Origin: PVC group bacterium
Lineage (GTDB): Bacteria > Omnitrophota > Gorgyraeia > B26-G9
DNA: 64,000 nucleotides
Reading direction: 5' to 3'
Assembly: GCA_024231215.1 (NCBI GenBank)
Contig: JAAEQR010000034.1
Location: 12,668-76,667 of the forward strand
Shown: piece by piece, positions 2,435 through 49,879 of the stretch
How the letters are laid out: the number at the start of each line of letters is the position of its first letter
Position numbering within the stretch: position 1 is the first letter of the stretch
Position numbers and translations under genes: made by a program
Notes under the pieces: generated by a model
The model's database searches: none
The model's input: only the letters and a program-made list of their open reading frames with translations
Told to the model about the DNA's origin: nothing

Positions 2435-2935
2435 TTAATTTTTAATTTCAATAGAAGCAATTGTGTCATGTATTGCTCCCCCATGGGAAAATAAACCTAT
2501 TTTATAAACTTGGAATCCTCTTCCTTTTCCCATTACATTACTATGATATCCAAAAGTTATTATTCTGCCGTTCTTTTTTAAAATTCTCGGAACCTCATCT
2601 TTCAATCTTTTAAATGGGCTGGCCTTATTTCCTTTATAAAATTCCATGCTTTTTCTATACGAATAAGGTGGGTCAAGAAGAATAGTATCAAAAATTTTTC
2701 CTTTCCATTTCATAACAAGTTGTAATGCGTCTTCATGGAAATCGGCAAGAGCATCTTCATCTATATCATTTCGCACTTCATCAATATCAAGTTTTGTATA
2801 TCCAGAAAATAAATTCAGAGTCAATCCGACACATTCATTTTCAACCCATTTTCGTATAGGTCTTACTTTGAATGTATATTTATTCAAGGGACATTTTATG
2901 TAATCAAATTTTATTCTCTTTTCCACTTTACTCAA
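2435..2935 (-). CDS. DNA methyltransferase, amino-MTase type (N6-adenine/N4-cytosine; DPPY motif IV)
   Basis: 166 aa; LNLFSGYT (motif I-like) followed by DPPY; small phage-type MTase without an obvious TRD. Confidence 0.6.
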   Translation of the reverse strand: MSKVEKRIKFDYIKCPLNKYTFKVRPIRKWVENECVGLTLNLFSGYTKLDIDEVRNDIDEDALADFHEDALQLVMKWKGKIFDTILLDPPYSYRKSMEFYKGNKASPFKRLKDEVPRILKKNGRIITFGYHSNVMGKGRGFQVYKIGLFSHGGAIHDTIASIEIKN

Positions 2936-6602: not shown

Positions 6603-6746
6603 TCATAATATTCAACAGCACGATCAGGCCTAACAGGTAATAAAACACCTTTATCCACTGGAGAGAGAAAAAATACCAACTACATCTAATACATAAATAA
6701 ACAACAAAAAGCCAAAAAATAGTTTCCATTTTTCCCTCTCAACTTT

Positions 6747-7040
6747 TTAAAGTTCTGCTTTTATATTAATTGCTTTAAAAACTTTTATTAGTTCTGTCTG
6801 CAATTTTTTACTTATCATCATATCCAACTCTTCGCTGTCTAAATATAAGTCTAACCCATCCGTCCACTCTTTGAGAAACTCTCCTATTTTTACCCCGATG
6901 TGTTTCTTTATATTTAATTCCCTTATGGCAGATTTAAACTGCGCTACGATTGCCTTTTCCAACTCTTTTTCAAGTTCCGGGTGCTTATCAATAATAAAAC
7001 TAATTTTGGTTCTCAATAAATCTTCAACTATATTTTCCAT
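6747..7040 (-). CDS. hypothetical protein
   Basis: Track ORF 6747..7115; internal Met (MENIVEDLL) has a strong AAGGAG SD and avoids overlap with the upstream gene. Confidence 0.4.
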   Translation of the reverse strand: MENIVEDLLRTKISFIIDKHPELEKELEKAIVAQFKSAIRELNIKKHIGVKIGEFLKEWTDGLDLYLDSEELDMMISKKLQTELIKVFKAINIKAEL

Positions 7041-7050
7041 TTTTTTCTCC

Positions 7051-7726: not shown

Positions 7727-7779
7727 GTTTTTTAATAAAAACTTTGTACAAATTAAAGCATGGTTCGGATATACCCCAA

Positions 7780-8097
7780 TTAAATGCCATTGGCTATCAA
7801 ATCATCTAAAATTTTGCTGGCATTATAATATTGTTCATGTGCATTTTCATTGTCACTTCCGGTATGCAAATAAAATTGTTGTAGAACATACAAAACATTT
7901 TTCAATTTTTTCTGCATTTCTGCTATTTTATCTTCGCCAACAGCACTTAATTCATGCTTATGCAAAATGCTGGCTTCCTTTTTAAAGTTTGCCCCACACG
8001 AATTACATTCCCATCTTTCGTTATAAGTCCCATTACTACTAATTGTTGGCTTATATTTTACTATCGAACAAGCACATCCACAATTTTGTTCTTCCAT
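7780..8097 (-). CDS. Cys-rich zinc-finger protein
   Basis: CGCAC...C-x2-C pairs (CNSCGANF); AAGGAG SD. Confidence 0.45.
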   Translation of the reverse strand: MEEQNCGCACSIVKYKPTISSNGTYNERWECNSCGANFKKEASILHKHELSAVGEDKIAEMQKKLKNVLYVLQQFYLHTGSDNENAHEQYYNASKILDDLIANGI

Positions 8098-11515: not shown

Positions 11516-12976
11516 TCATGTTCTTCCCATATTTGTAATTCTTCCATCCAGATACGGCTGTCCGCATTCCAAACACTGTAAAACCAAAGCTTCTTTGTTC
11601 GGCAATATACCTCTGTGCCGATCAACCAGAGTTCTTACTCTTATAGAATTATTTAATTTATCTTCCTCTGAACTGTTCAATGCCAGCGCCATCGTAACAT
11701 GGTTTAATTTCCTGGCATCTTCTGAAAGATCACTCTCTCTAATATCCCTGTCCAGTGTCTGCTTGTTGGAATGCGAAGCAGTTACCATTAATAAGTTCCT
11801 CTCCTGACCAATCGCCCTGTGTCCCATCCAGACAGAATCTATCTGGTGCCTTCTTTCCTCTTTAGTGTCCGGTTTACATATATCAGCATAATCTGTAACA
11901 ATCACGTCCGGAACAAAGTCTTCATAATATTCAAGATTGTCTAATATATTTCTCATATCGTCTGGGGTCGTGGATTTACTCGGGGCGCACTCTATCCTCA
12001 GCCTTGAGTTCTTAACGAAACCAGACATGGAATTGATCTTGGTATACACTTGATTATAATTCATAACAGGCTTGATAACTTTTCTTTTAAAGACATCGCC
12101 ATTCTGATCAAAGAAGGGGATTTCCACTTCTCTTTCACTCTCTTCTTCGTGAAAAGGGACAACTCCCCCGGTCAACCTCTGGTAAAATCTTAAATTCAAA
12201 TCATGTTTCGGCATCTCCCAAGAGAAGAATAAAACATTACATTTATTCAAAGTCGCCCACAAAGCCATTTCCATCAGCATGAATGTTTTACCCCGTTTTG
12301 CCGGGCCAATAACAGCAAGAAAGTCTCCCCGTCTTAAAGGCCTGATAAGGTCTCCTAACGCCCCAGGCAAGCGGAGAAGGGCGTTAGTTTGACCAAGAGC
12401 GTTCAGGGAGGTCATTATCTCTTCTGTGCTACTGTCCCAGAAATTAAACCCGTCTGACACAGTTTCTTCGACTCTCTTGAATTTGGCTATCTCTGCCTCT
12501 ACTGCCGTGTAGTCTCCGAGTAGCCGTAAACCTTTTATCCTTTCCTCAAGAATTTCAATGGCAGATCCCTTAAAATAATTCTTTGCCTTATCAACATTAT
12601 AATCAACATTATAGTGCTGATCCTCTTCCTCAAACCTGTCACTTATCCTTGATAAAAAAGTGTCTATTAATTCTATCTTTGATTCATTCGCTATAGCAGT
12701 CTTCTTTGCCTCGAACAGACTTTTGATGTCTTTAAGGGGGGCTTTTTTATACTTATCGTAATATTCTATACACCATTTAGCGACGGTCTTTGTATAAAAA
12801 ATATTGAAATATTCCGGTTGGTACATAGGTCTAATTCTTTTGATAAAATCTGTCGAAATAATCAATCCCAAAACAACATCCTGCTCTTCATTTTTATTTA
12901 TTTCTTGACTTTCAAAATTGATAGGCATGATTGTTTTCTTTATTTCTCCTATGTAAATTAACTCATACTGCACCAA
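11516..12976 (-). CDS. replicative DNA helicase, DnaB-like
   Basis: DnaB N-domain-like EQDVVLGLIISTDFIKRI; RecA-fold Walker A LAVIGPAKRGKTFMLMEMAL in the C-terminal half. Confidence 0.7.
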   Translation of the reverse strand: MVQYELIYIGEIKKTIMPINFESQEINKNEEQDVVLGLIISTDFIKRIRPMYQPEYFNIFYTKTVAKWCIEYYDKYKKAPLKDIKSLFEAKKTAIANESKIELIDTFLSRISDRFEEEDQHYNVDYNVDKAKNYFKGSAIEILEERIKGLRLLGDYTAVEAEIAKFKRVEETVSDGFNFWDSSTEEIMTSLNALGQTNALLRLPGALGDLIRPLRRGDFLAVIGPAKRGKTFMLMEMALWATLNKCNVLFFSWEMPKHDLNLRFYQRLTGGVVPFHEEESEREVEIPFFDQNGDVFKRKVIKPVMNYNQVYTKINSMSGFVKNSRLRIECAPSKSTTPDDMRNILDNLEYYEDFVPDVIVTDYADICKPDTKEERRHQIDSVWMGHRAIGQERNLLMVTASHSNKQTLDRDIRESDLSEDARKLNHVTMALALNSSEEDKLNNSIRVRTLVDRHRGILPNKEALVLQCLECGQPYLDGRITNMGRT

Positions 12977-24320: not shown

Positions 24321-25220
24321 TTAATCATTTTCTTTATAATCTACATTGTTATTATAATGTAGATTATTAGAATATTCATTTTCACAAAATTCAATGCAAG
24401 TTTCACAAAGTAATAATCCCTCATACGCCTCTAAATCATCAACTTGATGATCAGTGTCGCAAAATTCGCATTTTGTGACAACATTTTTATCAGCGTATTT
24501 TGATTTATTACTTTTTTTACCGTAAACTTGACCAGTATATTTATTATAATCATAACCACTTCCATAAACACTCCCGCAAAATCGATCATAATAATCGTTT
24601 GACATATACTTATTTTTATAAGTATATTTCTCTTGTTTATAAGTAGTGTTGGAATAATAAATATTTTTGTCTTTTTCAAAATCACCAAAAGAAAATAAAT
24701 ATCCTTTTTCGTCAAGTGCTATAACTCTAGATCCTTTTAAAGATATTTTCAACAATTTTTTAATATGATCTTTTTCAAAATCACAATTAGAAAAATTTGC
24801 TAAAATGTCTTTCACGAAAATTTGAGAATCTGACAAATTTTCATTTTTTTTGTCAGTAATGGAGATAACTCCATTGTGTGCAAAACCTTTTTCGCTGATA
24901 ATTTCAGTACTTTGTAATAATGAAATATTGTCAGTGATAGGAAAAGGATGACAATTTTCCGCCTTTACTTTTCCCGCGGTTGCTATCCTAGCGTGAATAA
25001 CTATACTGACATCCTGTTCATGTAATCCAAAATCAAAAAGTTTTGCATTCAAACTTTTCCTTAATGCTTTCGCACTTGAAAAACCTTTTTTAATAAATAC
25101 TCCTTTACTGGGAATATTAAACATATAACCAGCGCCATCGGGATTATTTATCAAACAATTTTTAACAATACTGTTATCCGGTAAAAATTGCTTTTTCGGT
25201 TTGTAAATAATAATACACAT
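24321..25220 (-). CDS. class-II glutamine amidotransferase-like (Ntn hydrolase, YafJ-type) protein with C-terminal zinc ribbon
   Basis: N-terminal Met-Cys (MCIIIYKP; Cys2 nucleophile after Met removal); HARIATAG fits the H-x-R-x-A-T-x-G motif of GATase-II; C-terminal CEFCDTDH...CETCIEFC. Confidence 0.5.
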   Translation of the reverse strand: MCIIIYKPKKQFLPDNSIVKNCLINNPDGAGYMFNIPSKGVFIKKGFSSAKALRKSLNAKLFDFGLHEQDVSIVIHARIATAGKVKAENCHPFPITDNISLLQSTEIISEKGFAHNGVISITDKKNENLSDSQIFVKDILANFSNCDFEKDHIKKLLKISLKGSRVIALDEKGYLFSFGDFEKDKNIYYSNTTYKQEKYTYKNKYMSNDYYDRFCGSVYGSGYDYNKYTGQVYGKKSNKSKYADKNVVTKCEFCDTDHQVDDLEAYEGLLLCETCIEFCENEYSNNLHYNNNVDYKEND

Positions 25221-25249
25221 AATAGTTAACCCTTTTTAATAATAAATTT

Positions 25250-25302
25250 AAGATTTATAAAAATCTTATACCTAGCTATCAATAATAAAAATTGACAGCT
25301 AG
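25250..25302 (-). promoter_or_regulatory. early-gene promoter/hairpin cassette (hairpins A 25250-25267, B 25272-25302)
   Basis: Same A/B hairpins as 24258..24310, one mismatch in B's right arm. Confidence 0.5.
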
Positions 25303-25316
25303 CTACAAAATTTCAA

Positions 25317-26615
25317 TTAAATTCCCTTTTCAATACAAGCTTGCAAAAATTGCTTGTATTTTAATTTTCTAGCCATTTCAAGAACATTTTGCCAGTTCAT
25401 TTTTTGAATTGACATTATACTATCATTTTCGGCGATAATAGCAATCAAATTAGTTAATTGCATAAATCCAATTAAAGAATTTATTTTTAATGTTCCGCGC
25501 CATAATCTAAACTCAATTGTTGAAATGGGTATTAAATTAACACTTTGATAGCGTCCTTGCTTGACATTTTTTTCTTTAATGCCAGTGACAAGCTTTTTAT
25601 TTAATTTTCCTAGATCTTCATTTTTATGACAATAATTCAGATTATTTCTTTTTGAGAAAAGAAATAAATGTTGCCACAATTTCTCGAAAATTAAACAAAT
25701 TTTAGTTGCTGACAATTCATAATTTGAAAAATATTGACGATTTACATGGATATGAAATCCACAATTTCCCGAATTATGAGAAACGGCATTATAATCACGA
25801 CATATTTCAACTAATTTTTGTAAAGGGAATTTATTGACAAAAAAATCTAGAGTGCAAGGTTGTGAACAAATTTCAATTCCTAGATCTGACAATGAACCGT
25901 CTGTTTTTAAATAAAAATATTTTTCATTTTCACTTAAATTATATAATTCATAAACTAAATCGGGTACATTATCAATTTTTTCAATCTCTAGCTCCCAACC
26001 TAAAAACAAGTCAGTTGCTTTTTTTTGTGAAATGGAATGAAAAGTCATTCTATTCGGTGTATAATCATAATTATGTAAGTGTTCAATGCACCCATGATCA
26101 TTATAGCAATCTTCACAATAAGATCGGTGACATGATTCACAATAATAAGATTGATCATCGTGATATAAATCACCACAACGTGAACACGTAAAGTATTCTT
26201 CTAGACAATTTTCGCATAAACAATGATCATTATTATAATGATAATGATCATTGTCCCGATGTATATCACATTCACAACTATCACAAACTAGGTAATCATT
26301 TTCATAACAAGTTTGACAAACTATTCTATTTCCATCATTTATAGAAATAGAATCATCATTAAGATGAACATTTCCGCAATCGTCACACTCAAAAAATAAT
26401 TCCTCAAAACATTCTTCACAATAATTTTTTCTGTTAATTCGCTGTAGATTTTCCCTATCTCTTTCAAAATGTTCCTTACAATGACTACACTTAAAAACAT
26501 TGTTTTTAAAACATTCTGAACAATAAGAAAAATCCTCATTGTGATATTCAGTTACAACTTGTCCACAACTAGAACAAACTTTTTCCGCTTGTACTTCTTT
26601 TTCCTCTTTTTCCAT
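25317..26615 (-). CDS. Amidoligase_2-family-like protein with N-terminal Cys-rich zinc-ribbon repeats
   Basis: N-terminal ~190 aa hold more than ten C-x2-C pairs; the C-terminal half has GWELEIE, KTDGSL..GIEICSQP and CGFHIHV, resembling amidoligase (GS-like) motifs. Confidence 0.45.
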   Translation of the reverse strand: MEKEEKEVQAEKVCSSCGQVVTEYHNEDFSYCSECFKNNVFKCSHCKEHFERDRENLQRINRKNYCEECFEELFFECDDCGNVHLNDDSISINDGNRIVCQTCYENDYLVCDSCECDIHRDNDHYHYNNDHCLCENCLEEYFTCSRCGDLYHDDQSYYCESCHRSYCEDCYNDHGCIEHLHNYDYTPNRMTFHSISQKKATDLFLGWELEIEKIDNVPDLVYELYNLSENEKYFYLKTDGSLSDLGIEICSQPCTLDFFVNKFPLQKLVEICRDYNAVSHNSGNCGFHIHVNRQYFSNYELSATKICLIFEKLWQHLFLFSKRNNLNYCHKNEDLGKLNKKLVTGIKEKNVKQGRYQSVNLIPISTIEFRLWRGTLKINSLIGFMQLTNLIAIIAENDSIMSIQKMNWQNVLEMARKLKYKQFLQACIEKGI

Positions 26616-33485: not shown

Positions 33486-33513
33486 TAAATATACATATAA
33501 AGGAGCAACATAG

Positions 33514-34512
33514 ATGCCAAAGATACTAATGCTTGATCCTAACCCTAAATCTGCAGTTTCTTTTTATCGCAGTATCGGGACTTTTTCATATCTTCACAGG
33601 TTAGACCCAAATGTTCATTACGAACTGCTTTCCGTTTACAACTGGAATACATGGATGGGCGCAGATATTCTGTATGTGCAGAGGCCATACGCTGACGATC
33701 ATCTTGGAGCGATAGTTGAAGCACAAAAATGTAATGTAAAAGTGTGGGTTGACACAGATGATTTACTTCATGAAATCCCGAATTACAATCCTAACCACAG
33801 AACTTTTAACAATCCTAAAGAAAAATTCCTGGATAATTTCTTAAACTCAGTAAAAAGAGCGGATGTTGTTACTGTTACAACTGAAGTTTTAAAGGATTAT
33901 TATTCTGAGTACAATGAGAATGTTCAGATAGTGGAAAACGCTCACAATGATTATGCTTTCCCTTTTATGAAACTTATCGGGGATTCAGCAAAGGCAATAA
34001 ACTGGAGAGGGAGCAACACTCACCGGATGGACGTTCTATCGGTTGCTCAACAGATAGTGAATGTCCGTGAAAAGCATAAAGACTGGAAATGGATTTTTGT
34101 CGGAAACGATTTATGGTATATAACAGAACTTCTCAAAGGGAACGCCATAGAGATTCCCGAAAAACCTATTCTGACATTCTTTGAACTCCTCAGAACCGTC
34201 GGCAGTTCTATACAGGTTGTCCCTCTCGTTGATAATAATTTTAATCGTGCTAAATCCTCTATATCCTGGATAGAGGCTACTTATGGGGGAATGACTACGG
34301 TTGCTCCGAACTTCCCAGAGTTTAATAAGCCGGGCTGTTTGTGTTATGAAGGAGAAGAACAGTTTGAATATTATCTTGAGAAATGTATTAAATCTAAAGC
34401 TTTTCGTCAGGAAAATTATGAGAAATCCTTTAAGTATATAAAGGAAAACTTACTGTTAAGTCAGGTTAACCGGAAAAGGATGGATATCATAAACGAGTTG
34501 AGGAATAAATGA
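33514..34512 (+). CDS. putative glycosyltransferase (GT-B-like), first gene of the sugar operon
   Basis: 332 aa; Rossmann-like C-terminal half; weak assignment. Confidence 0.3.
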   Translation: MPKILMLDPNPKSAVSFYRSIGTFSYLHRLDPNVHYELLSVYNWNTWMGADILYVQRPYADDHLGAIVEAQKCNVKVWVDTDDLLHEIPNYNPNHRTFNNPKEKFLDNFLNSVKRADVVTVTTEVLKDYYSEYNENVQIVENAHNDYAFPFMKLIGDSAKAINWRGSNTHRMDVLSVAQQIVNVREKHKDWKWIFVGNDLWYITELLKGNAIEIPEKPILTFFELLRTVGSSIQVVPLVDNNFNRAKSSISWIEATYGGMTTVAPNFPEFNKPGCLCYEGEEQFEYYLEKCIKSKAFRQENYEKSFKYIKENLLLSQVNRKRMDIINELRNK

Positions 34513-35027
34513 TAGTTGCAGATTATATAGTCAAGTATCTTGAAGATTATGGAGTAAAACACTGCTTCTCCGTTGTCGGTGGAGGGAGCATGTGGTTGAA
34601 CAACTCTTTCGGAAAATCAAAGAAAATTAAAACTGTATATATGCACCATGAACAGGCTTGCGCGATTGCCGCAGAGGGATATTCCCGAGTGAATAATGAT
34701 TTGTCTGTGGTTTGTGTCACCACTGGCCCCGGAGGATTAAACTGTCTTACAGGGGTAATGGGGCAATGGACGGATTCTGTCCCTGTCCTGTATATTTCAG
34801 GACAGGTTGATTCAAGAACAATCAAAACAAGTAATCTTCGTCAGTTGGGGGATCAGGAAGTTGATATAATTAGTGCGGTTAAACCAATAACCAAATTCTC
34901 TCTTTTATTAAGGGATAGTATTGATTTGTATTTTTGGTTGCGTATTATGATTAACACGGCGATGGCGCATAGGAGAGGGCCAGTGTGGATTGATATCCCC
35001 TGGGATGTTCAAAAAGAAAAGGTATAA
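34509..35027 (+). CDS. TPP-dependent enzyme, N-terminal (Pyr) domain subunit (ALS/YerE-like)
   Basis: YIVKYLEDYGVKHCFSVVGGGSMWL...HHEQACAIAAEGYSRV...VVCVTTGPGGLNCLTGV...DSVPVLYISGQV: canonical TPP_enzyme_N including the catalytic Glu in HEQ; stop overlaps the next ATG (TAATG). Confidence 0.75.
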   Translation: MIVADYIVKYLEDYGVKHCFSVVGGGSMWLNNSFGKSKKIKTVYMHHEQACAIAAEGYSRVNNDLSVVCVTTGPGGLNCLTGVMGQWTDSVPVLYISGQVDSRTIKTSNLRQLGDQEVDIISAVKPITKFSLLLRDSIDLYFWLRIMINTAMAHRRGPVWIDIPWDVQKEKV

Positions 35028-35452
35028 TGAATATAGAAAGATATGAGAACCCACTGATAATAGCTGGTCACGGAATACGCTTATCTGGCGCGATAGATTT
35101 ATTCCACGAATTGTTAGACAAGTTAAATATCCCCGTAGTTACAACCTTTAATGGATTTGATATAGTAGCTTCTGATCATCCGAATTTTGCAGGAAGAATA
35201 GGAACCATGGGTACTCCCGAAGGGAATAAGATATTAAGGGAAGCGGATCTGGTTTTGTGTATAGGGACTCGGAACAATGTCAGGCAAATAGGTTATAAGA
35301 AAGAGGCCTTCGCCAAGAGTGCAAGAAAAGTGGTTCTTGTGGATGTGGATGAAGATGAATTATATAAAACTGGCGTTGGTTTAAAAGTGAGAAGGTTCTG
35401 TTGCATGGATGCGAAACAATTTATTCAGGAGTGTTTGGATTACGATGATTGA
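35027..35452 (+). CDS. TPP-dependent enzyme, central domain subunit
   Basis: PLIIAGHGIRLSGA...LNIPVVTTFNGFDIVASDHPNFAGRIGTMGT...ADLVLCIGTR aligns with the ALS central domain; TGA overlaps the next ATG (ATGATTGA). Confidence 0.7.
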   Translation: MNIERYENPLIIAGHGIRLSGAIDLFHELLDKLNIPVVTTFNGFDIVASDHPNFAGRIGTMGTPEGNKILREADLVLCIGTRNNVRQIGYKKEAFAKSARKVVLVDVDEDELYKTGVGLKVRRFCCMDAKQFIQECLDYDD

Positions 35453-35999
35453 TCCATATAATTTTATAAAAGTATTAACAAAAAATTTACCGGAAGACGC
35501 TATAGTGGTTTGCGCTAATGGAACCCCATGCGTTACAATGTTTCAAGAAGGTGTTGTCAAGAAGGGGCAGAGGATCTTCTGGAACTCCGGATGTGCTGCC
35601 ATGGGTTATGCCCTTCCTGCTGCGATAGGGGCTCATTATGCAAGTGGCAAAGAAGTAATCTGCATAGAGGGTGACGGGAGTTTGATGTTTAATTTACAGG
35701 AACTTCAGACAATAGACCACCATGAGCTCCCGATTAAATTGTTCGTATTTAACAATGGTGGTTATCACTCAATAAAGGAAACTCAGGATGTTTTTTTTAA
35801 AGGCGATTATCATGGCAGTGCCTTGGGAGATGTTAGTTTTCCGGATTGGGAAGAAGTCGCGGAAACATTCAACTTCCCATATTTTGTTATGGATGGGGAC
35901 GATAGAGGTGTGATTGCTCACTTCCCTTTTAATAAGTTTAAAAATGTTTTTATTGAAGTTAAATTAGGTGAATATAAATTTAGGAGGCAGGAATTATGA
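35445..35999 (+). CDS. TPP-dependent enzyme, C-terminal (PP) domain subunit
   Basis: TPP-binding motif GDGSLMFNLQELQTIDHHELPIKLFVFNNGGY (GDG-x25-NN); start taken at the in-frame ATG 35445 overlapping the upstream stop, rather than track 35409. Confidence 0.75.
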   Translation: MIDPYNFIKVLTKNLPEDAIVVCANGTPCVTMFQEGVVKKGQRIFWNSGCAAMGYALPAAIGAHYASGKEVICIEGDGSLMFNLQELQTIDHHELPIKLFVFNNGGYHSIKETQDVFFKGDYHGSALGDVSFPDWEEVAETFNFPYFVMDGDDRGVIAHFPFNKFKNVFIEVKLGEYKFRRQEL

Positions 36000-36463
36000 A
36001 TGGTTATCAAGAGCCTTGTCCTAAATGCGGGACACTTTCTTCCGGCTGTTCGGTCTTCACGAACGGGGCGATTTCTCAAGACTTTTGTAAATGTCCTGAA
36101 TGCGGTATTGCTTTCCCAAAAAAGGGTTCAACGGCAAAAGTTGAAATAATTGATGATGAAGAATTCTTTTCGGTACCCAAACCAGAAAAATTCTCATTAA
36201 AAGAAATATGTATTTGCGCAGCAGTAAAAGCAGTTGATGGAACCATTATTCGTGGACACAGGCACAGGGATTGTAGAGATGGGATAATAAGGAGAGGGAA
36301 AGAACCCATGAAAGAATGGGCTGGAGATGGTTTTATCACTTCTTACGGGAGGTTCGTTGACAGGATAGAGGGTTACGAGTTGATGAAATCTATCGACTGG
36401 GAATCTGTTAATCCGGAAGGGTATCAGAAGTGTGAGTGGTTATTCTCGGAAGATTTATATTAA
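35996..36463 (+). CDS. zinc-ribbon protein with uncharacterised C-terminal domain
   Basis: CPKCG...CKCPECG; ATGA-coupled to the upstream gene. Confidence 0.45.
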   Translation: MNGYQEPCPKCGTLSSGCSVFTNGAISQDFCKCPECGIAFPKKGSTAKVEIIDDEEFFSVPKPEKFSLKEICICAAVKAVDGTIIRGHRHRDCRDGIIRRGKEPMKEWAGDGFITSYGRFVDRIEGYELMKSIDWESVNPEGYQKCEWLFSEDLY

Positions 36464-36478
36464 AAGAGAGGTATAATT

Positions 36479-37261
36479 ATGAATAAGTTAGAATACGAAA
36501 TGATTGAAACTCTTAAGCGCTTGAAGAATGATTATGGGTGTATACAGATTAAGGCTGAGTTCGAGAACGAGGGAAGTCGTCAGGTAGAACTTTGTCGGCT
36601 TAAAGATGTAATAAGCAAAGTAGACATACCGTTAATTCTTAAGATTGGCGGTGTAGAAGCAGTAACAGATATATACGAGGCCTTGACGATAGGGGCGAAG
36701 GGGATAGTTGCTCCCATGGCCGAAACTGCTTACGCGCTTTCTAAATTTATTGATGCTGTGGAAAAATTCGTTCCGAAGGATAATCGGGAAGATGTTGAAT
36801 TTGCCGTGAACATTGAGACTATTACAGCGTATGAAAATTTTGAAAAAATGCTTAAATTAAAGAACATTGATGTTCTCCAAAGCGTGACAGTCGGGCGGGT
36901 GGATTTTACAGGTTCACTCGGGGAAGATAGAAATTATGTTGATACAGTAACAATGCGTGAACTTTGCAAAAATATCTTTTCTAAAGCTAAGGCTAAAAAT
37001 TTACGAACAGCTTTGGGCGGGGCTATTTCTTCTGCGTCAGAAACTTTCCTGGAAACTTTAACTGAAGAAAATTTATTGAACAAATACGAAACTCGGAAAA
37101 TTGTATATGATATCGAAGGGTTAAAAACCTATAAGGAAGGTTTAGAGGAAGGAATAAAATTTGAACTTCAGTGGTTGAAAAGTAAAGAGAGATATTATCA
37201 TCTGATAGCAATTGAAGACGAAAAAAGAATAAAAATGTTGGAGGAGAGAGTCAATGGGTGA
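36479..37261 (+). CDS. TIM-barrel aldolase/lyase-like protein (HpcH/HpaI or PEP-utilising family?)
   Basis: 260 aa; KIGGVEAVTDI...IVAPMAETAYA resembles aldolase/lyase barrels; weak. Confidence 0.3.
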   Translation: MNKLEYEMIETLKRLKNDYGCIQIKAEFENEGSRQVELCRLKDVISKVDIPLILKIGGVEAVTDIYEALTIGAKGIVAPMAETAYALSKFIDAVEKFVPKDNREDVEFAVNIETITAYENFEKMLKLKNIDVLQSVTVGRVDFTGSLGEDRNYVDTVTMRELCKNIFSKAKAKNLRTALGGAISSASETFLETLTEENLLNKYETRKIVYDIEGLKTYKEGLEEGIKFELQWLKSKERYYHLIAIEDEKRIKMLEERVNG

Positions 37262-38300
37262 GTGTGGAATATGTGGTCATGAATTAAACAAAGACGTTCT
37301 GGTTCTGGAGAATATCCCGGAAAAAACATTCTGTTTCTCAGACAAAACTGTTACTTTAAACATCGCGAAGTGTGGTCACTGCGGAGTAGTGCAGTTATTT
37401 GACGTTCCATTAAACGATGATTTCAGGGATGTCCATCGAAGTATAGAATCAATGCCCGGCCACCGGATGAAAAAGAAGAAAGACTTGGACGATTTTATAG
37501 AAGAGTTTGGTTTGTGGAGCAAAAGGTTTTTCGAAATGGGTTGTGGCAATGGACAGTATTTGGATATTCTCAGGGAAATAGGTGTTGAGTGCGACGGGTA
37601 TGAAGCCAATGAAGACAACATAGATGAATGTATAGACAAAGAGTATTGTGTTTCCGACGGTGTTGCTTTTAAAGAGGAAATTTTTAATAAATATGATGTT
37701 ATTTTTTCTTTTTATTTTTTAGAGCATATGCCTGATCCGGTGGATGTCTTAACAAATGTTTATGACAAGCTTAACCCCGGAGGGATGATTTACATAGAAG
37801 TCCCGAACTATAAGTACATAGAAAAAGATGGGCTCTGGCTTGAGTTCACAAGAGACCACAGGTTTTATTATGACCTTTCTTCTATGAGATTTTTATTATC
37901 AAAAACTGGCTTCAAATTGCTTAAGATAACTCCGGGAGACTTGACTTTAAAAGTGATAGCGAAGAAACCGGACGACTTCGAGAATGTCCGGGAAAGCATG
38001 GAAAAAGACATAGTCGATTTTGATATATTAACTAACAAGATAGGAAATTATGTTATAGTTGGCGCAGGACATTATACTCAAACACTGTTAAACAAGACTG
38101 CTAATAAGCCTGTACAAATATATGATTCCGTTCCCGACAAGATAGGGAAAATTCTTTGTGGAGTGAAAATTTTACCCCAGGGAGAGATTCGGGATTGTGA
38201 ATTTAATAATATTATTATAAGTTGCGGGGCGTACAATCAAGAAGCGGAGAAAAATATTGAAAGACTTACGGAAGGAAAGAATATAATTATCTGGGGGTAG
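37254..38300 (+). CDS. SAM-dependent C-methyltransferase-like (N-terminal zinc ribbon + class I MTase + C-terminal Rossmann-like domain, TylC3/NovU architecture)
   Basis: CGICGHEL...CGHCG; MTase motif I FEMGCGNGQYLD; the three-part layout matches NDP-hexose C-methyltransferases. Confidence 0.55.
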   Translation: MGECGICGHELNKDVLVLENIPEKTFCFSDKTVTLNIAKCGHCGVVQLFDVPLNDDFRDVHRSIESMPGHRMKKKKDLDDFIEEFGLWSKRFFEMGCGNGQYLDILREIGVECDGYEANEDNIDECIDKEYCVSDGVAFKEEIFNKYDVIFSFYFLEHMPDPVDVLTNVYDKLNPGGMIYIEVPNYKYIEKDGLWLEFTRDHRFYYDLSSMRFLLSKTGFKLLKITPGDLTLKVIAKKPDDFENVRESMEKDIVDFDILTNKIGNYVIVGAGHYTQTLLNKTANKPVQIYDSVPDKIGKILCGVKILPQGEIRDCEFNNIIISCGAYNQEAEKNIERLTEGKNIIIWG

Positions 38301-38301
38301 C

Positions 38302-39402
38302 ATGTCGTATACACAGAGAGAAGAACAAGTAAGAGAGTCTATTGAAGTTCGCAAACCTGTCGCATGGGCTAAGATTCAGCAAACTGACCAGAGAGTAAAA
38401 GAAGGAAAAAGCATCGCCCTTTTACAACTGCAATACAGATATGTCTGTAATGAAGTTTGCAAACACTGTGCTATAGAACGGTTTAAAGTTAACTTGGAAG
38501 GTAGAAAATTAACTCCTGCCGATGTGAAAGATATTGCAGATCAGGCTCATGAGTATGGGCTATTTTCTATCTGCATTTCGGGAGGTGAACCGTTAATCTT
38601 TCATGATCTGGAACAGGTAATAGACGCTATCGGCCCAGAAAGATTCATATTATCAATGGACACTAATGGGTTGGCTTTATCTCAACATGAGATAAAATGG
38701 CTGGTAACGAAAGGGGTTGACCGTATTCACCTGAGTATTGATGGGTTACAGGAAAATCACGACGAGTTTAGACACGAAGAAGGAGCATGGCAGCATAATA
38801 TAGACATGCTTCCATATTGTAAACAGTATGGGCTTGGAGTTGTTGTGAACATAGTTGCCACTAAAGATTTGGTAAGAAGCAGAGAAATAGAAGAACAACT
38901 TGAGTTTATACAGAAGTTTGGTTTTCATGCTTCTTTGATTTATGCGAAACCAGTTGGTAATTTTGAAGAGGCTGGAGACCAGGTTTTAAACAAAAAAGAT
39001 TTTGCATATCTTGAAACTTTAACGAAAAAGTATAACTGTTCAACTCACCTTACTCCCGCTTACGGCAGAGATGTTGGCTGTCTGTGTTTCAAGCGCCACT
39101 TTTCAATACTGCCAAACGGGAAAGTCCTTCCCTGTCCATGGCTCCCGATTTCTATGGGGAACGTACTGGAAGAAAAACTGGAAACAATTATAACAGGGTC
39201 GTTGATGAATCCATGGTTTAGCTGGAAGCATAAACACACTTGTCATTCGGGAAATCAGGATTCTTATTTTTATAAAAATGTTGTTTCTCAGTTAGATGAA
39301 CTCCACGATCTCTTTGGATATCCGGTTGACTGGAAATTGTTGAATTGGCATTTTGAATACTTCAGGAAGAGTTCCACTAAAATTACTGAGAAGGGGAGCT
39401 AA
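38302..39402 (+). CDS. radical SAM enzyme with SPASM/twitch-like C-terminal Cys cluster
   Basis: CNEVCKHC (C-x3-C-x2-C), ISGGEPL, C-terminal CLCFKRHFSILPNGKVLPCPW. Confidence 0.75.
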   Translation: MSYTQREEQVRESIEVRKPVAWAKIQQTDQRVKEGKSIALLQLQYRYVCNEVCKHCAIERFKVNLEGRKLTPADVKDIADQAHEYGLFSICISGGEPLIFHDLEQVIDAIGPERFILSMDTNGLALSQHEIKWLVTKGVDRIHLSIDGLQENHDEFRHEEGAWQHNIDMLPYCKQYGLGVVVNIVATKDLVRSREIEEQLEFIQKFGFHASLIYAKPVGNFEEAGDQVLNKKDFAYLETLTKKYNCSTHLTPAYGRDVGCLCFKRHFSILPNGKVLPCPWLPISMGNVLEEKLETIITGSLMNPWFSWKHKHTCHSGNQDSYFYKNVVSQLDELHDLFGYPVDWKLLNWHFEYFRKSSTKITEKGS

Positions 39403-40371
39403 ATGGAGATTGGTGAAAGAGATATTGTAGAGGAAGATATAAAAAAAGTATTATCTGAAAATCTGCCATGGAACAGGCTGAGAAATAAAACGATAGCGGT
39501 TTCCGGTTCAAGAGGTTTTATTGCTTCGTGGATAGTTAAATTATTAGAATCAATACAGGAAGAATATAATATTACAATCTGGCATATCAATAAACCTGAA
39601 TATGATATTAACAGGTCTCTGTTCAGTATTGGTGTCCCCAAGAGAGTAGATTATATTTTTCATGCAGCCAGTTATGCGTCACCTCTAAAGTTCAAAGAAA
39701 ATCCTGTAGATGTGATCTTGCCGAATACGATTGGTACTCATAACCTGTTGAAATTGGCAGATGCGAAAGAGGCTGAGTTTGTATACTTCAGCACATCGGG
39801 GGTTTACGGGTGGCATGATTTTGATGACTACCCTTTGTCCGAAAAACAATTCGGCAGACTTGATTGTTCTGAAGTAAAGAACTGTTATCTTGAATCAAAA
39901 AGACTGGGGGAACAGTTGTGTGTTTCTCACAGTTATCAGTATGATATAGAAATCAAGATTCTCCGGCTGGGGATATGCTATGGCCCGGGGTTAAGCCTGG
40001 ATGATGGTCGCGTGATGAATACTTTTATAAAGAAAATACTTGATAAAAAAGAACTACCTGTATACAATGAGCATGTCTATCGGAGTTTTATGTATATAAC
40101 GGATGTTCTTAGCGCAATTTTTACAATTTTATTCCACGGGGAAAATAGCCCATATAATGTATCAGCAGACAAAGAAATTTCCATCCTTCAATTAGCCCAA
40201 TTGTTTTCTTCCATGTACCCGAACTCAAAATTGAGTTACCTAAAACGGACAGACAGGTTGAGTGTTGACTTCAACAGGACATGGATGAATACAGGAAAAT
40301 TGAAAAATCTCGGCTGGGAACAAAGAGTCAGCTTAGAAGATGGTATAGAAAGAACAGTGGAGAGTTACTAG
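39403..40371 (+). CDS. NAD-dependent epimerase/dehydratase (extended SDR)
   Basis: Gly-rich IAVSGSRGFIAS and catalytic Y-x3-K (YLESKRL). Confidence 0.75.
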   Translation: MEIGERDIVEEDIKKVLSENLPWNRLRNKTIAVSGSRGFIASWIVKLLESIQEEYNITIWHINKPEYDINRSLFSIGVPKRVDYIFHAASYASPLKFKENPVDVILPNTIGTHNLLKLADAKEAEFVYFSTSGVYGWHDFDDYPLSEKQFGRLDCSEVKNCYLESKRLGEQLCVSHSYQYDIEIKILRLGICYGPGLSLDDGRVMNTFIKKILDKKELPVYNEHVYRSFMYITDVLSAIFTILFHGENSPYNVSADKEISILQLAQLFSSMYPNSKLSYLKRTDRLSVDFNRTWMNTGKLKNLGWEQRVSLEDGIERTVESY

Positions 40372-41561
40372 TGAGAAAAATATATTACAATGAAGCGATA
40401 ATTGATGAAAACGAAATAAATTCTATATGCCAGTTTATAACAGGGAAAGCCAACAGGCTTGCATATGGAGAAGAAGTTTTAGTGACAGAAAAGAAGTTAG
40501 CTGATTTTTTAAAAGTCAAACATTGTCTTCTGACTAATTCGGGGTCTTCCGCAAACTTGTTGGCTTTTATGGCATTGACATCCCCTGAATTAAAAGAGAG
40601 AAGGATAGAGCGAGATGACGAGATAATAACCACTGCGTTAGGTTTCCCTACAACTATTTCTCCTATCGTGAATTATGGAGCCGTCCCGGTCTTTGTGGAT
40701 GTTGATCTATGGACTATGAATATAAACATAGAAAGAATGAAAGAAGCTTTATCTCCGAAAACAAAAGCTGTAGTGGTGGCGCATACTCTCGGGAATCCTG
40801 CCAATATAGATGCTATAATGGGCTTCTGTGAAGAAAACGGGTTATACTTTATTGAGGACAACTGTGATTCTTTAGGCAGTAAATATAACAATAAACTTAC
40901 AGGCACTTTCGGTGATATTGGAACTTCTTCTTTTTACCCTGCACATGCGATAACAATGGGCGAAGGTGGAGCGGTATACACAAATAATACAGAACTGCAT
41001 AACATAATGCGCTCTATGAGAGACTGGGGAAGAGATTATAAATGTTCGGAATGTACCTGGGACTGCAAGAAAAGATTTGATTCCGGGTATGATTGCAGAT
41101 ATACATATTCTCATTTTGGATATAATTTAAAAGTAACTGAAATGCAAGCTTTAATTTTAAACAAACAAATAGATAAGCTTCCCATGATAATTGAAAAAAG
41201 GAAACTTAACTGGAAGAAATTACGAGTTAAGCTGGATGGTTTAGGTTTTCCTTTTCAAAGCCCTACTCCCAATTCTGATCCATTGTGGTTCTCTTTTGTT
41301 TTAATAGCAAAAGAACATGACAGGGACGACTTAACAGAATATTTAGAAAGAAACGGAATAGGGACGAGAGTTATTTTCGGCGGGAATCTTACAAAACAAA
41401 AATGTTTCAAAACGCTTTCTCCGCTCTACAGGGTGGTGGGGGATCTCAAAAATTCTGACTATATAATGGAGAATGCGTTTTTTATCGGGTGCCATCCTGG
41501 AATGACAGATGAAGACATGGATTACATTGTGGAGGCAATAGAGAGGTATGTTCAAAGATGA
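40371..41561 (+). CDS. DegT/DnrJ/EryC1-family PLP/PMP enzyme with His replacing the Schiff-base Lys (E1/ColD-type sugar 3-dehydratase signature)
   Basis: Family motifs LTNSGSSANLLAF, AVPVFVDVD, KTKAVVVAHTLGNP, FIEDNCDSLGSKY, GDIGTSSFYPAHAITMGEGG; the position of the conserved Lys (FSFhxxKxiT) holds His (PAHAIT); Cys-rich insert CSECTWDC...DCRY; GTG start overlapping the upstream stop. Confidence 0.65.
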   Translation: MRKIYYNEAIIDENEINSICQFITGKANRLAYGEEVLVTEKKLADFLKVKHCLLTNSGSSANLLAFMALTSPELKERRIERDDEIITTALGFPTTISPIVNYGAVPVFVDVDLWTMNINIERMKEALSPKTKAVVVAHTLGNPANIDAIMGFCEENGLYFIEDNCDSLGSKYNNKLTGTFGDIGTSSFYPAHAITMGEGGAVYTNNTELHNIMRSMRDWGRDYKCSECTWDCKKRFDSGYDCRYTYSHFGYNLKVTEMQALILNKQIDKLPMIIEKRKLNWKKLRVKLDGLGFPFQSPTPNSDPLWFSFVLIAKEHDRDDLTEYLERNGIGTRVIFGGNLTKQKCFKTLSPLYRVVGDLKNSDYIMENAFFIGCHPGMTDEDMDYIVEAIERYVQR

Positions 41562-42237
41562 CAAACTCGTAAAGGTAAAGAACACAATATTCAATGATGA
41601 AAATTTAATAAAAATAGGGGATCTGTTCTGGACAAAAGAAGACATCCCTGCGTATGAGTATTTAAAAGATAGCCATAAAAGAGAAATGGAAAGTATTCTC
41701 CCACATCTTGTGGGGAATGAAGTTGCCGTTCAAGCTGGCGGTCACTGCGGATTCGTGATCAAAGAATTAGAAGAACATTTCAAAAGGATTTACACTTTTG
41801 AACCGGATAACACAATGTTCCTGGCTCTTTGCTTGAATGTACCAAATAAAAATGTTTATAAGTTTCAAGCCTGTCTGGGGGAAAGACACAAAATGGTTGA
41901 TATGGAAATAAATCCTATCTGCCCTCATGCTGGAGCAAAGTATGTTAAGGGCAGGGGAAATATTCCAATGCTGGTTGTAGATGATCTCGCTTTAGATTGT
42001 TGTGACCTACTGATGCTCGATCTTGAAGGGAATGAGTATAAAGCCGTTCTTGGAGCATCTGAAACAATTCAGAAATTCCACCCCGTATTGTGTGTAGAAA
42101 GATACTGGGGGCCGAGAACAACTGGGCTTCCAGAGTCATTTTTTGACTCCCTCCTGGGCTACTTAAATTATGAATTAGTTGATAGAGTTGGAGAGAACAA
42201 ACAGGATTTTATCTATAAATATAAGGGGGTCAAATGA
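41548..42237 (+). CDS. FkbM-family methyltransferase
   Basis: VAVQAGGHCGFV and LMLDLEGNEYKAVLGA match the Methyltransf_21 (FkbM) core. Confidence 0.6.
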   Translation: MFKDDKLVKVKNTIFNDENLIKIGDLFWTKEDIPAYEYLKDSHKREMESILPHLVGNEVAVQAGGHCGFVIKELEEHFKRIYTFEPDNTMFLALCLNVPNKNVYKFQACLGERHKMVDMEINPICPHAGAKYVKGRGNIPMLVVDDLALDCCDLLMLDLEGNEYKAVLGASETIQKFHPVLCVERYWGPRTTGLPESFFDSLLGYLNYELVDRVGENKQDFIYKYKGVK

Positions 42238-48316: not shown

Positions 48317-49879
48317 GTGTTAATCGACGGCCTTACGATACAAGGCAAACCTCGCGTAGCCCGGCGATACAGGGCCATTTTTCTTAAGAAATATATCTAT
48401 AGAATGGCCATAAACAAATACGATACATTATTCACAATAAGACACCCTGAATTAAAGAAGCGCGAAAACAACTGGCAGCTTATTTATCATTCCTATGTTG
48501 GCGGCGTTGAATATTCTGAAGCCGGATATTTAATTAAATATCCAAAAGAGAGTATGGGAAGTTTTACTAAGAGGAAAGAAAGGGCAGTCTATTTTAATCA
48601 GATGTCTCCCATCGTTGATATGATCTCCGGGATGTTGTTCCTGAACAAGCCGACCAGAGAGATCCCTCAAGAACTTAAATACTTTGAAACATCAATTACA
48701 CCTTCTGGCGATAAAAACCTGAACGAATTTATGCGCCTCGTTGCTGCGTATTCATTTATGTTCACATGCGGAGTACTGATAGACTCCCCCGAGTTTGACC
48801 CGGAAGAAGTAAAAACAAAAAAAGACAGGGTGGATAATAAACTTAATCCATATTCTGTTTTATATCTCCCTTTTAAAATAAGGGATTTTTATGTAAATGA
48901 AGAAAGCGGAGAACTTGAATGGATTTTATTGGATAACTCCTACATAGATCATAGTGACCCGTTTTTAAAAAGCGAAAATATATATAAGTACACTCTCTGG
49001 GACAGAGAAAAAGCTGTCGATTATACAAGAAGGGGTGAAAGAAACGAAGTTCTCCCCGGGGAAGAAAGATATCATAACCTGGGTTTTGTTCCTTTTAGAT
49101 TTGTTTCATGGAGAGATGACAACAGTGATTTTATAGCCGAGACAGTCTGCGAAGACATAGCAATGGTTTCTAAACTTATATACAACAATATGAGTTACAT
49201 GGATGAAATGCTTGCTTCTGGTACTTTTAAAATGCTTGCTTACCCGACAAAAGATGGGAGTACCCCAGATGAATTGTCACAAGGAGGTGTTGGCCCGTTA
49301 TCCATCCTTCCTTATGATCTGATAAGTCACACTGAGCCTAGCTTTATCGGTGCTGAGTTATCCGGAATAGATCCTTTTGTAAAAGCTATAAATTTTTATA
49401 TGACTGAAATTCTTAAAAAAGTCGGTTTATCTACAGATGAGATGAAGGAATTTGTTAAATCTGGTACAGCTAAACGAATCGATATGGAGAAAATGCGGGC
49501 TCTTCTTACTTCCGGCGCGATGATGATGAGTAAGTTGGAAGAATGGATGATGTTTACCGCAGCTAAATGGGAAGGGAAGTCTGTTGATGGAAGAGTTGAT
49601 TACACATCATCTTTCTCAGATGAAGACCTTGAAACTGAAGTTACACTATTAACAGGCCTACTGGTTCATCCAGTTAAAAGTTTGAAGATAGAAGTCCTCA
49701 GTCTCCTTGTTCGGAAACTGCTCGGCAACTACCTTGAACCAGAAGTTCTGGAAAGTATTCAAAAAGATATAGAAACGAATACCGTTATTAAAACAGATGA
49801 TTTTGCCCCTCAAAATACACAAGGGGTGGCAAATAAAATTTTAAATAAACCACAGGAGAAAGTAGCAAATGAAGCCTAA
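48317..49879 (+). CDS. putative portal protein
   Basis: About 490-520 aa, first gene after the terminase block, followed by scaffold and capsid genes; the likely start is MAINKYD at 48404. Confidence 0.45.
   Translation: MLIDGLTIQGKPRVARRYRAIFLKKYIYRMAINKYDTLFTIRHPELKKRENNWQLIYHSYVGGVEYSEAGYLIKYPKESMGSFTKRKERAVYFNQMSPIVDMISGMLFLNKPTREIPQELKYFETSITPSGDKNLNEFMRLVAAYSFMFTCGVLIDSPEFDPEEVKTKKDRVDNKLNPYSVLYLPFKIRDFYVNEESGELEWILLDNSYIDHSDPFLKSENIYKYTLWDREKAVDYTRRGERNEVLPGEERYHNLGFVPFRFVSWRDDNSDFIAETVCEDIAMVSKLIYNNMSYMDEMLASGTFKMLAYPTKDGSTPDELSQGGVGPLSILPYDLISHTEPSFIGAELSGIDPFVKAINFYMTEILKKVGLSTDEMKEFVKSGTAKRIDMEKMRALLTSGAMMMSKLEEWMMFTAAKWEGKSVDGRVDYTSSFSDEDLETEVTLLTGLLVHPVKSLKIEVLSLLVRKLLGNYLEPEVLESIQKDIETNTVIKTDDFAPQNTQGVANKILNKPQEKVANEA

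Follow-up and report, generated by a model that had tools for sequence, protein, structure and literature searches.

Enzymes of the acetolactate synthase (ALS), pyruvate oxidase (POX) and YerE type depend on thiamine diphosphate (ThDP) and are regarded as obligate three-domain single chains. In the 64,000-nucleotide stretch of DNA analysed here (contig JAAEQR010000034.1, positions 12,668 to 76,667 of the forward strand, from the 'PVC group bacterium' assembly GCA_024231215.1; hereafter the window, whose own numbering is used), the pyrimidine-binding (Pyr), central (TH3) and pyrophosphate-binding (PP) domains of such an enzyme lie on three consecutive open reading frames (ORFs). Is this one broken gene, or are there three genes, and what would they then encode? 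We consider that these are probably three separately translated phage genes that jointly encode a three-subunit YerE-like ThDP carboligase (Pyr, TH3 and PP) and that arose by fission at the linkers. The ORFs, which are deposited at NCBI as the hypothetical proteins GY853_01710, GY853_01715 and GY853_01720 of the metagenome-assembled genome (MAG), and their junctions are as follows.

34509-35027, + strand: subunit 1, stand-alone Pyr domain (TPP_enzyme_N), 172 amino acids (aa), PF02776 1.7e-33
35025-35029, + strand: junction 1, TAATG, subunit 1 stop and subunit 2 start with a one-base overlap
35027-35452, + strand: subunit 2, stand-alone central domain (TH3 or TPP_enzyme_M), 141 aa, PF00205 7.1e-33
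35445-35452, + strand: junction 2, ATGATTGA, subunit 3 start 8 nt inside the subunit 2 end
35445-35999, + strand: subunit 3, stand-alone PP domain (TPP_enzyme_C), 184 aa, PF02775 4.4e-26

Each ORF matches exactly one Pfam domain, in every case above the gathering score. Pyr, TH3 and PP are not joined on a single polypeptide, the three ORFs having their own starts and stops; an alternative upstream ATG for ORF3 is present at 35409. The division of the three domains over three ORFs had been proposed in a preliminary description of this locus and is borne out by these matches, and both junction strings are as given there. Likewise, the catalytic (cofactor-activating) glutamate is found where it had been placed, in the N-terminal piece, within the HHEQ sequence of residues 46-49 of ORF1; His46, Glu48 and Gln49 do not vary in an alignment of 28 sequences. 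The GDG...NN motif of the PP piece is present from residue 76 of ORF3, with a spacing of 24 residues and not 25 as first stated. With the glutamate and GDG-x24-NN both intact, the loss of catalytic residues that could have spoken against an enzyme is not seen. The assignment of the ORFs to three different frames was wrong: ORF1 and ORF3 share a frame (their start coordinates are divisible by 3) and ORF2 alone is shifted.

The central-domain ORF contains G-x-G and GTR motifs. Its AlphaFold2 single-chain model (pLDDT 86.8, pTM 0.85) superposes on the central domain of the YerE-like enzyme JanthE with a TM-score of 0.87 and an rmsd of 1.7 Å over 135 columns, and according to this model the ORF is a complete TH3 domain. 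The top structural matches of the model are all full-length chains of more than 500 aa.

The frame pattern, with ORF1 and ORF3 in one frame and ORF2 shifted by one, is also that of two compensating indels, such that sequencing or assembly frameshifts in one ordinary gene of ~500-590 aa have to be considered. The preliminary description took the coupled junctions as evidence against indels. ATGA-type overlaps are also found between the upstream glycosyltransferase gene and ORF1 (34509-34512) and between ORF3 and the gene that follows (35996-35999), so that start/stop coupling is a trait of the whole operon and not of the three pieces alone. Indels are excluded by a layout kept in six assemblies, by purifying selection and by genes that intervene between the pieces.

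The same trio of genes, designated N, M and C for the Pyr, central and PP parts, occurs in five other assemblies from separate samples, which provide the independent view across the junctions that had been asked for. The six loci, taken from NCBI, ENA, Logan and IMG/VR assemblies, are 52-75% identical to each other at the protein level and have their gene boundaries in common despite different samples and pipelines. Related loci are designated by L numbers, and the five have the following arrangements.

L007: N, M and C of 171, 147 and 184 aa
L006: N, M and C of 173, 138 and 196 aa
L175: N, M and C of 171, 140 and 184 aa; synteny with the window is complete between the glycosyltransferase and the FkbM methyltransferase, both included
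L005: N and M separated by three small ORFs, M and C by a cupin gene and another ORF
L009: NUMOD4 + HNH_3 homing endonuclease of 178 aa between N and M, at 6513-7049 (Pfam 1.6e-16 and 1.3e-12; phrog_59 3e-47)

The L005 cupin (7730-8050, 106 aa, MannoseP_isomer C-terminal type, 7.4e-14) seems to belong to the pathway, perhaps as a sugar ketoisomerase or epimerase, and not to be a mobile element.

In all six loci the M gene is kept, the order is always N-M-C, and both the catalytic glutamate (H-x-E-Q) and GDG-x24/25-NN are present. Most of the six share an M gene start of M-I-D-L/I-x-K/R-Y-K-N-P-L, a C gene start of M-I-D/C-P-Y-N/K-F (M-I-D/C-P-Y in four of the five loci other than the window) and a C-terminus of DYKFRKQEL. 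Each piece begins at its own conserved methionine, and indels leave unexplained the ~85-90 linker and tail residues that are missing relative to fused enzymes. Whole genes stand between the pieces in L005 and L009, and the genes neighbouring the trio in the window are intact. What such errors do look like can be seen in the long-read MAGs L014, L108, L178 and L176, whose apparent three-part copies resemble artefacts and were rejected: these are bacterial or long-read assemblies in which gaps set the pieces apart and neighbouring genes (DegT, 2-Hacid_dh and NTP_transferase) are broken as well; in L108, N and C moreover occupy one frame. They serve as negative controls for frameshift artefacts. 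For the window we regard two frameshift errors as exceedingly improbable.

Stand-alone homologues of the pieces are frequent in the databases. The N ORF has 2,351 homologues; among the best 120 of these, 61 are proteins of 165-180 aa with PF02776 only, many of them on long contigs, and none has 500 aa or more. For the M ORF, 18 other M-only proteins of 115-177 aa were found (50-63% identity), with 34 invariant columns in their alignment, and C-only homologues of 183-196 aa exist for the C ORF.

To place the split among its relatives, 175 sequences were classified, namely 174 fetched loci (several of them duplicates) and the window. With NMC for the fused form and a slash for each gene border, the architectures are distributed as follows.

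Fused NMC: 150 of 175, among them almost every one of the 80 loci from bacterial and archaeal genomes
N/MC: 6 of 175
NM/C: 5 of 175
N/M/C: 8 of 175, made up of the window, its relatives and two artefacts (L014 and L108)
Incomplete: 6 of 175

Fused relatives in phages (L008, L010, L012 and L013) have 580-594 aa. Breaks were mapped onto one of them, L008 (586 aa), the N domain of which is 69% identical to that of the window. On its numbering, N pieces end at ~170-174, M pieces start at ~199-203 and C pieces start at ~374-378. At junction 1 the fused relatives have an N-M linker of ~25 aa and at junction 2 an M-C linker of ~30-35 aa, both of which are absent from the three-part proteins. Subunit 1 ends ~4 residues past the Pyr domain core, and subunit 3 is devoid of the C-terminal tail that fused relatives carry: the conserved F-x-P-K-L ... 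D-G-T-I/L-V ... E-N/D-M/L-x-P segment of L008, L010, L013 and JanthE is not reached by the three-part clade, which stops at DYKFRKQEL. In total the three parts of the window amount to 497 residues against 586 in L008. The alignment to fused relatives therefore confirms that the breaks fall at domain boundaries, with pieces ending and beginning at the domain cores. Each piece comprises a whole domain and retains its catalytic motifs, and the linkers and the C-terminal tail have been deleted.

Two-part versions share some of these breaks. In the N/MC loci (L001, L021, L177 and L003) the N/M boundary is as in the three-part loci. The NM/C loci L180 and L181 (Logan; six contigs) keep the N-M linker, and their M/C break, TAATG junction and shortened tail are as in the clade of the window. 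The genes around the two-part versions match those around the trio. Both types are common in phage and bacterial metagenome contigs, where they stand in the databases as unnamed proteins. The NM/C locus L123 is probably an artefact too, because its sisters at a distance of 0.12 are fused. Further viral two-gene NM/C lineages are L047, L073 and L081 (IMG/VR). On the bacterial-looking contig L003 (492-2880, − strand), the N/MC version lies beside a phosphoenolpyruvate (PEP) mutase fused to a cytidylyltransferase domain and a 365-aa phosphonopyruvate-decarboxylase-like N+C ThDP protein, and one glycan or phosphonate locus thus holds two differently truncated or split ThDP enzymes.

The missing tail and linkers are features that a decaying pseudogene might also show, its pieces being remnants without a working enzyme, and one relative, L176, is indeed degenerate, with an N fragment of just 78 aa. 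Such decay is at odds with the selection on the genes. N, M and C alike are under purifying selection, with ratios of nonsynonymous to synonymous divergence (dN/dS) of 0.09-0.28 where these could be computed (pairwise dN 0.19-0.39, dS saturated). The catalytic glutamate and ThDP motif persist in six of six loci, the M-only proteins retain their 34 invariant columns, and no part has been lost in a clade that is deeply diverged. A pseudogene is accordingly a very improbable explanation. Taken together, the conserved layout, the conserved gene ends, the purifying selection and the complete M domain exclude both frameshift errors and pseudogenization for practical purposes. As far as gene sequences can tell, this phage clade inherits and conserves the split, and purifying selection acts on it.

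Three genuine genes could still give a single chain through a programmed frameshift, the splicing of an intron or trans-splicing by a split intein. Upstream of the ORF2 ATG, 33 nt of its −1 frame are open, and junction 1 is preceded by an A-rich stretch, CAAAAAGAAAAGG; endonucleases with flanking split inteins or inside introns are moreover known from phages and metagenomes (PMC2677866, PMC2988022). The pieces however end and begin at the domain cores, so that intein halves would have no space, the junctions vary in sequence from locus to locus, and five protein-coding ORFs in L005 and a whole gene in L009 separate the pieces. A fused product would also be without both linkers. At gathering thresholds, Rfam yields neither a group I or group II intron nor a match to another family in the four sequences scanned (the window, L005, L009 and L063), and intron-based re-joining was dropped for this reason. 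Overall we judge re-joining to be highly unlikely.

Which enzyme do the three genes encode? The YerE-like identity that had been guessed for the locus agrees with comparisons to solved structures, in which the N domain was represented by the fused relative L008 and not by ORF1 itself, and the M and C ORFs were compared directly. JanthE (PDB entry 8rph) is the best match for each part tested (L008 5.5e-97, M ORF 1.8e-19, C ORF 1.2e-33), the C ORF matching its residues 384-537. PpYerE (PDB entry 5ahk) is the next non-repeat match for L008 and for the M ORF, and acetohydroxyacid synthase (AHAS) also follows. JanthE is a YerE-like enzyme with ThDP and flavin adenine dinucleotide (FAD) whose reaction joins 2-keto acids to ketones (PMC12247030, PMC12188165). 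A gene context of RfbH, aldolase and glycosyltransferase supports the same identity. The locus was not assigned to biosynthetic AHAS (IlvB/IlvG/IlvI): its context is a phage sugar-modification operon, and the best scores against the NCBIfam equivalogs are 115, 68 and 93 bits, far below the cut-offs, which range over 538-976. The described YerE-like carboligases (YpYerE, PpYerE, JanthE, ErwE and MMAR_2332) share with the window the catalytic glutamate, GDG-x24-NN and the gene context of the published scheme (PMC9306805, PMC12247030). They differ in being single chains of ~560-620 aa, while the window enzyme consists of three polypeptides without the linkers and the C-terminal tail; its genes lie in a phage and not in a lipopolysaccharide (LPS) or lipooligosaccharide (LOS) locus, and its activity is a prediction from sequence.

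The operon on both sides of the three ORFs comprises the following genes.

33514-34512, + strand: glycosyltransferase, directly upstream with an ATGA overlap (phrog_7162 1.3e-31; 37% identity to the upstream gene of L175)
35996-36463, + strand: T4_Y16D-like protein, 155 aa (C-terminal 93 residues 66% identical to L175 2858-3262)
36479-37261, + strand: HpcH/HpaI-type aldolase (PF03328 1e-06, 28.6 bits against a cut-off of 25)
37254-38300, + strand: S-adenosylmethionine (SAM) methyltransferase
38302-39402, + strand: radical SAM/SPASM enzyme
39403-40371, + strand: sugar-nucleotide dehydratase or reductase of the short-chain dehydrogenase/reductase (SDR) family (PF01370 3.5e-30; below the cut-off of every NCBIfam equivalog)
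40281-41561, + strand: RfbH-type CDP-6-deoxy-4-hexulose 3-dehydrase, E1 (NCBIfam NF011936 5.5e-151, 503 bits against a cut-off of 423; PF01041 1.5e-85)
41548-42237, + strand: FkbM-family methyltransferase, also in L175

With RfbH, an HpcH aldolase, an SDR enzyme and a glycosyltransferase, this qualifies as a deoxy-keto-sugar cluster. Much of it is conserved in the relatives: the glycosyltransferase keeps its position upstream of the N gene in L175, L005 and L009, an HpcH/HpaI aldolase lies beside the TPP genes in L001, L003, L005, L175, L177 and L180, and the pair of SAM methyltransferase and radical SAM genes also follows in L005, L175 and L180. A T4_Y16D-family gene after the PP gene is annotated by Pfam in L005, L007, L175 and L177 and always adjoins the TPP genes; the N-terminal half of the window protein has CxxC...CxxC cysteine pairs of the zinc-ribbon type that are not found in the T4_Y16D genes of the relatives. 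The genes neighbouring the trio in the window are all full length; the RfbH homologue, for instance, spans positions 35-437 of a 440-position model. Dehydrases of the RfbH type produce the 3,6-dideoxy-4-keto sugar that serves YerE-type enzymes as acceptor. As listed, the RfbH-like ORF (start 40281) overlaps the end of the SDR gene (40371) by 91 nt; its true start is probably further downstream, since the NCBIfam match begins at residue 32. Downstream chemistry differs among the relatives. In L006 (4329-5420), the three TPP genes are followed by a NeuB-like synthase gene and two genes of the radical SAM type, and L177 has a 554-aa protein (3895-5559) with glycosyltransferase-2 and radical SAM Pfam matches.

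A published 'unifying scheme' for sugars with acyl branches starts with a 4-hydroxy-2-keto acid from a pyruvate aldolase, which a YerE-like enzyme adds to a CDP-3,6-dideoxy-4-keto-hexose before a reductase and a glycosyltransferase finish the product (PMC9306805). Because the gene set of the operon matches this scheme, the three subunits would form a YerE-like carboligase that acts on such a sugar. We infer that the three polypeptides assemble into an active enzyme. They would join non-covalently in the usual ALS-type architecture, the active site being located between the Pyr and PP domains of neighbouring protomers and TH3 packing against both. This complex would decarboxylate a 2-keto acid, which could be pyruvate or a 4-hydroxy-2-keto acid from the adjacent HpcH/HpaI aldolase, the presumed source of the donor. 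The acyl anion equivalent would be transferred to a CDP-3,6-dideoxy-4-keto-hexose, obtained via the RfbH 3-dehydrase, at its C4 ketone, and the acyl-branched product would then be reduced, methylated and transferred by the adjacent glycosyltransferase.

Functional genes need not mean that all three products act together. Sulfopyruvate and phosphonopyruvate decarboxylases are natural ThDP enzymes that have no central domain, and N and C could by themselves constitute a minimal two-subunit ComDE-like decarboxylase or carboligase, the role of M being separate or optional. The 365-aa N+C protein beside the PEP mutase of L003 and the lack of conservation of the FAD-stabilizing residues of JanthE in the M subunit are in line with this. 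It is countered by M itself, which none of the six loci has lost and which always stands between N and C in gene order, under constraint equal to theirs; its nearest homologues are central domains from fused members of the same subfamily, and an N+C-only member was not seen in the three-part clade. The locus was not assigned to the two-subunit class of ComDE, given its conserved central-domain gene between the Pyr and PP genes. We consider an enzyme of N and C alone unlikely.

Equally doubtful, though more far-reaching, is a variant in which the freed TH3 has become an exchangeable third subunit, with Pyr and PP as the catalytic core as in ComDE and with M as a gate for assembly, for the loading of FAD or for the choice of substrate. 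What the central domain does in non-redox members of the ALS type is a long-standing puzzle. Were this variant true, the phage would possess a modular ThDP enzyme whose activity is tuned by subunit stoichiometry, and the NMC, N/MC, NM/C and N/M/C forms would be a natural experiment on the purpose of the ALS-type central domain.

Neighbour-joining trees built on the concatenated domains unite the six three-part loci in one clade (bootstrap 93% and 97%). A phage N/MC clade consisting of L001, L021 and L177 is separate from it (100% bootstrap), and the fused L008 and L010 and the NM/C locus L180 are near it with weak support. Judging from these trees, the three-way split arose once and then persisted to identities as low as ~55-70%, and NMC, N/MC, NM/C and N/M/C genes all coexist in related phages. 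The gene would have undergone fission at two domain linkers in a phage lineage, after which loss of the linkers would have led to compact, overlapping start/stop junctions.

Homing endonucleases may have been involved. Phages are known for 'genes in pieces', such as nrdA of Aeh1 with mobE, the T4 topoisomerase genes 39 and 60 with mobA, and, in Aeromonas phage 25, gene 43A/43B; the split products of nrdA and of gene 43 have been demonstrated to reassemble into active enzymes (PMC2988022). The window resembles these cases in that a phage enzyme gene is divided into separate cistrons, and the free-standing HNH or seg endonucleases of those cases have counterparts in the HNH genes at the N-M linker of L009 and the M-C linker of L063. 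The published cases differ in being two-part, and some are cut in functionally critical regions, whereas the window has two breaks at domain linkers, with the linkers deleted and no endonuclease. In L063, a GC-rich phage, an HNH_5 gene (6038-6751, 1.8e-10) at the M-C linker splits NM (370 aa) from C (243 aa). Compared with the fused sister L024 (68% and 66% identity), it interrupts just ~7 residues of the linker, and the position of the break is that of the C gene start in the three-part clade. The HNH genes of L063 and L009 thus occupy different linkers of the same enzyme gene in unrelated phage lineages. The L009 gene was set aside as the cause of the N/M split: its sister L175 (100% bootstrap) is without it, and the gene was probably inserted later, into a junction that was already there. 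By analogy with these systems, a homing endonuclease could also lie at the origin of the split in the window.

Several observations weigh against a three-subunit YerE-like carboligase with this history. The residues Tyr268 and Pro293 of JanthE, which are reported to stabilize FAD (PMC12188165), align to methionine and arginine in the M subunit of the window, so that cofactor content and exact chemistry may differ; fused phage relatives have the same replacement, and an RNNVRQ stretch is common to them and the window. The C-terminal tail of fused YerE-like enzymes (~25-30 residues) is missing in the split forms. No NDP-sugar pyrophosphorylase was recognized within the window, and the sugar acceptor would hence have to come from the host. 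The nodes that decide whether fission began with NM/C or N/MC have a bootstrap of 18-65%. The case for an endonuclease origin is circumstantial for the clade of the window, since neither junction of the window has an endonuclease; the junctions overlap, with no ORF between the pieces. Finally, both the assembly of the three polypeptides and their activity are inferred from the genes.

How unusual is a three-part ThDP enzyme? In sulfopyruvate decarboxylase (ComD/ComE) and the split phosphonopyruvate decarboxylases, Pyr and PP are separate polypeptides that assemble non-covalently, and the E1 alpha/beta enzymes and the 2-oxoacid:ferredoxin oxidoreductases are further multi-part members. ComDE and the split phosphonopyruvate decarboxylases are like the window enzyme in having Pyr and PP domains on separate chains (the TEED classification, PMC2831816, is cited alongside the ComD/ComE split); unlike it, they are two-part and lack the central domain, which the window enzyme, of the ALS/YerE branch, keeps as a third subunit. 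Split-gene transketolases are known from Carboxydothermus hydrogenoformans (PMC7661550) and, as sugar-branching transketolases, from Streptomyces (PMC12247030). These too are ThDP enzymes encoded by adjacent genes and reconstituted as active hetero-oligomers, some with a proposed role in branching keto sugars, but they belong to another superfamily, with the domain order PP-PYR-TKC and two parts and not three. The suspicion that a three-way split had not been described stands in so far as full-text searches of the literature gave no description of an ALS/YerE-type enzyme in three polypeptides with the central domain as a subunit, an absence that is not proof. It needs qualifying, as multi-part ThDP enzymes exist in other superfamilies and two-part forms exist in the same subfamily. 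For these N/MC and NM/C forms, the full-text searches likewise returned no description, and split transketolases alone turned up.

A natural three-piece enzyme would be material for asking how such domains assemble without covalent links, whether the central domain is needed and what the linkers and the C-terminal lid contribute, with the fused, N/MC and NM/C sisters in related phages as built-in controls. YerE-like enzymes are sought in biocatalysis for chiral tertiary alcohols, and small separable subunits could help their engineering. For phage biology, it would mean that phages carry a full pathway to acyl-branched deoxysugars. The list of phage 'genes in pieces' gains a two-break, domain-precise case, with homing endonucleases at both linkers in relatives.

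The window itself is a segment of a phage genome, with genes for a DnaB-like helicase, a replication initiator, a DNA helicase, a repair exonuclease and a portal protein, and the contig (89,976 bp) is probably a phage that was mis-binned into a bacterial MAG. Its relationship to any deposited phage is no more than distant. Landmark genes are the following.

2928-6602, − strand: large DNA polymerase (phrog_405, 9e-275)
11516-12976, − strand: DnaB-like helicase
48317-49879, + strand: portal protein, at most 28% identical to those of known phages

A blastn search of 33500-37300 against 50,697 phage records gave zero matches, and together with the low identity of the portal protein this left no annotated relative that could be used. 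The Rfam scan at gathering thresholds found zero RNA families, tRNAs included, over the whole 64 kb. Elsewhere in the window, a gene pair at 24321-26615 (− strand) encodes an Amidoligase_2 protein of 432 aa (PF12224 8.7e-07, phrog_16683) and a weakly class-II glutamine amidotransferase-like protein of 299 aa.

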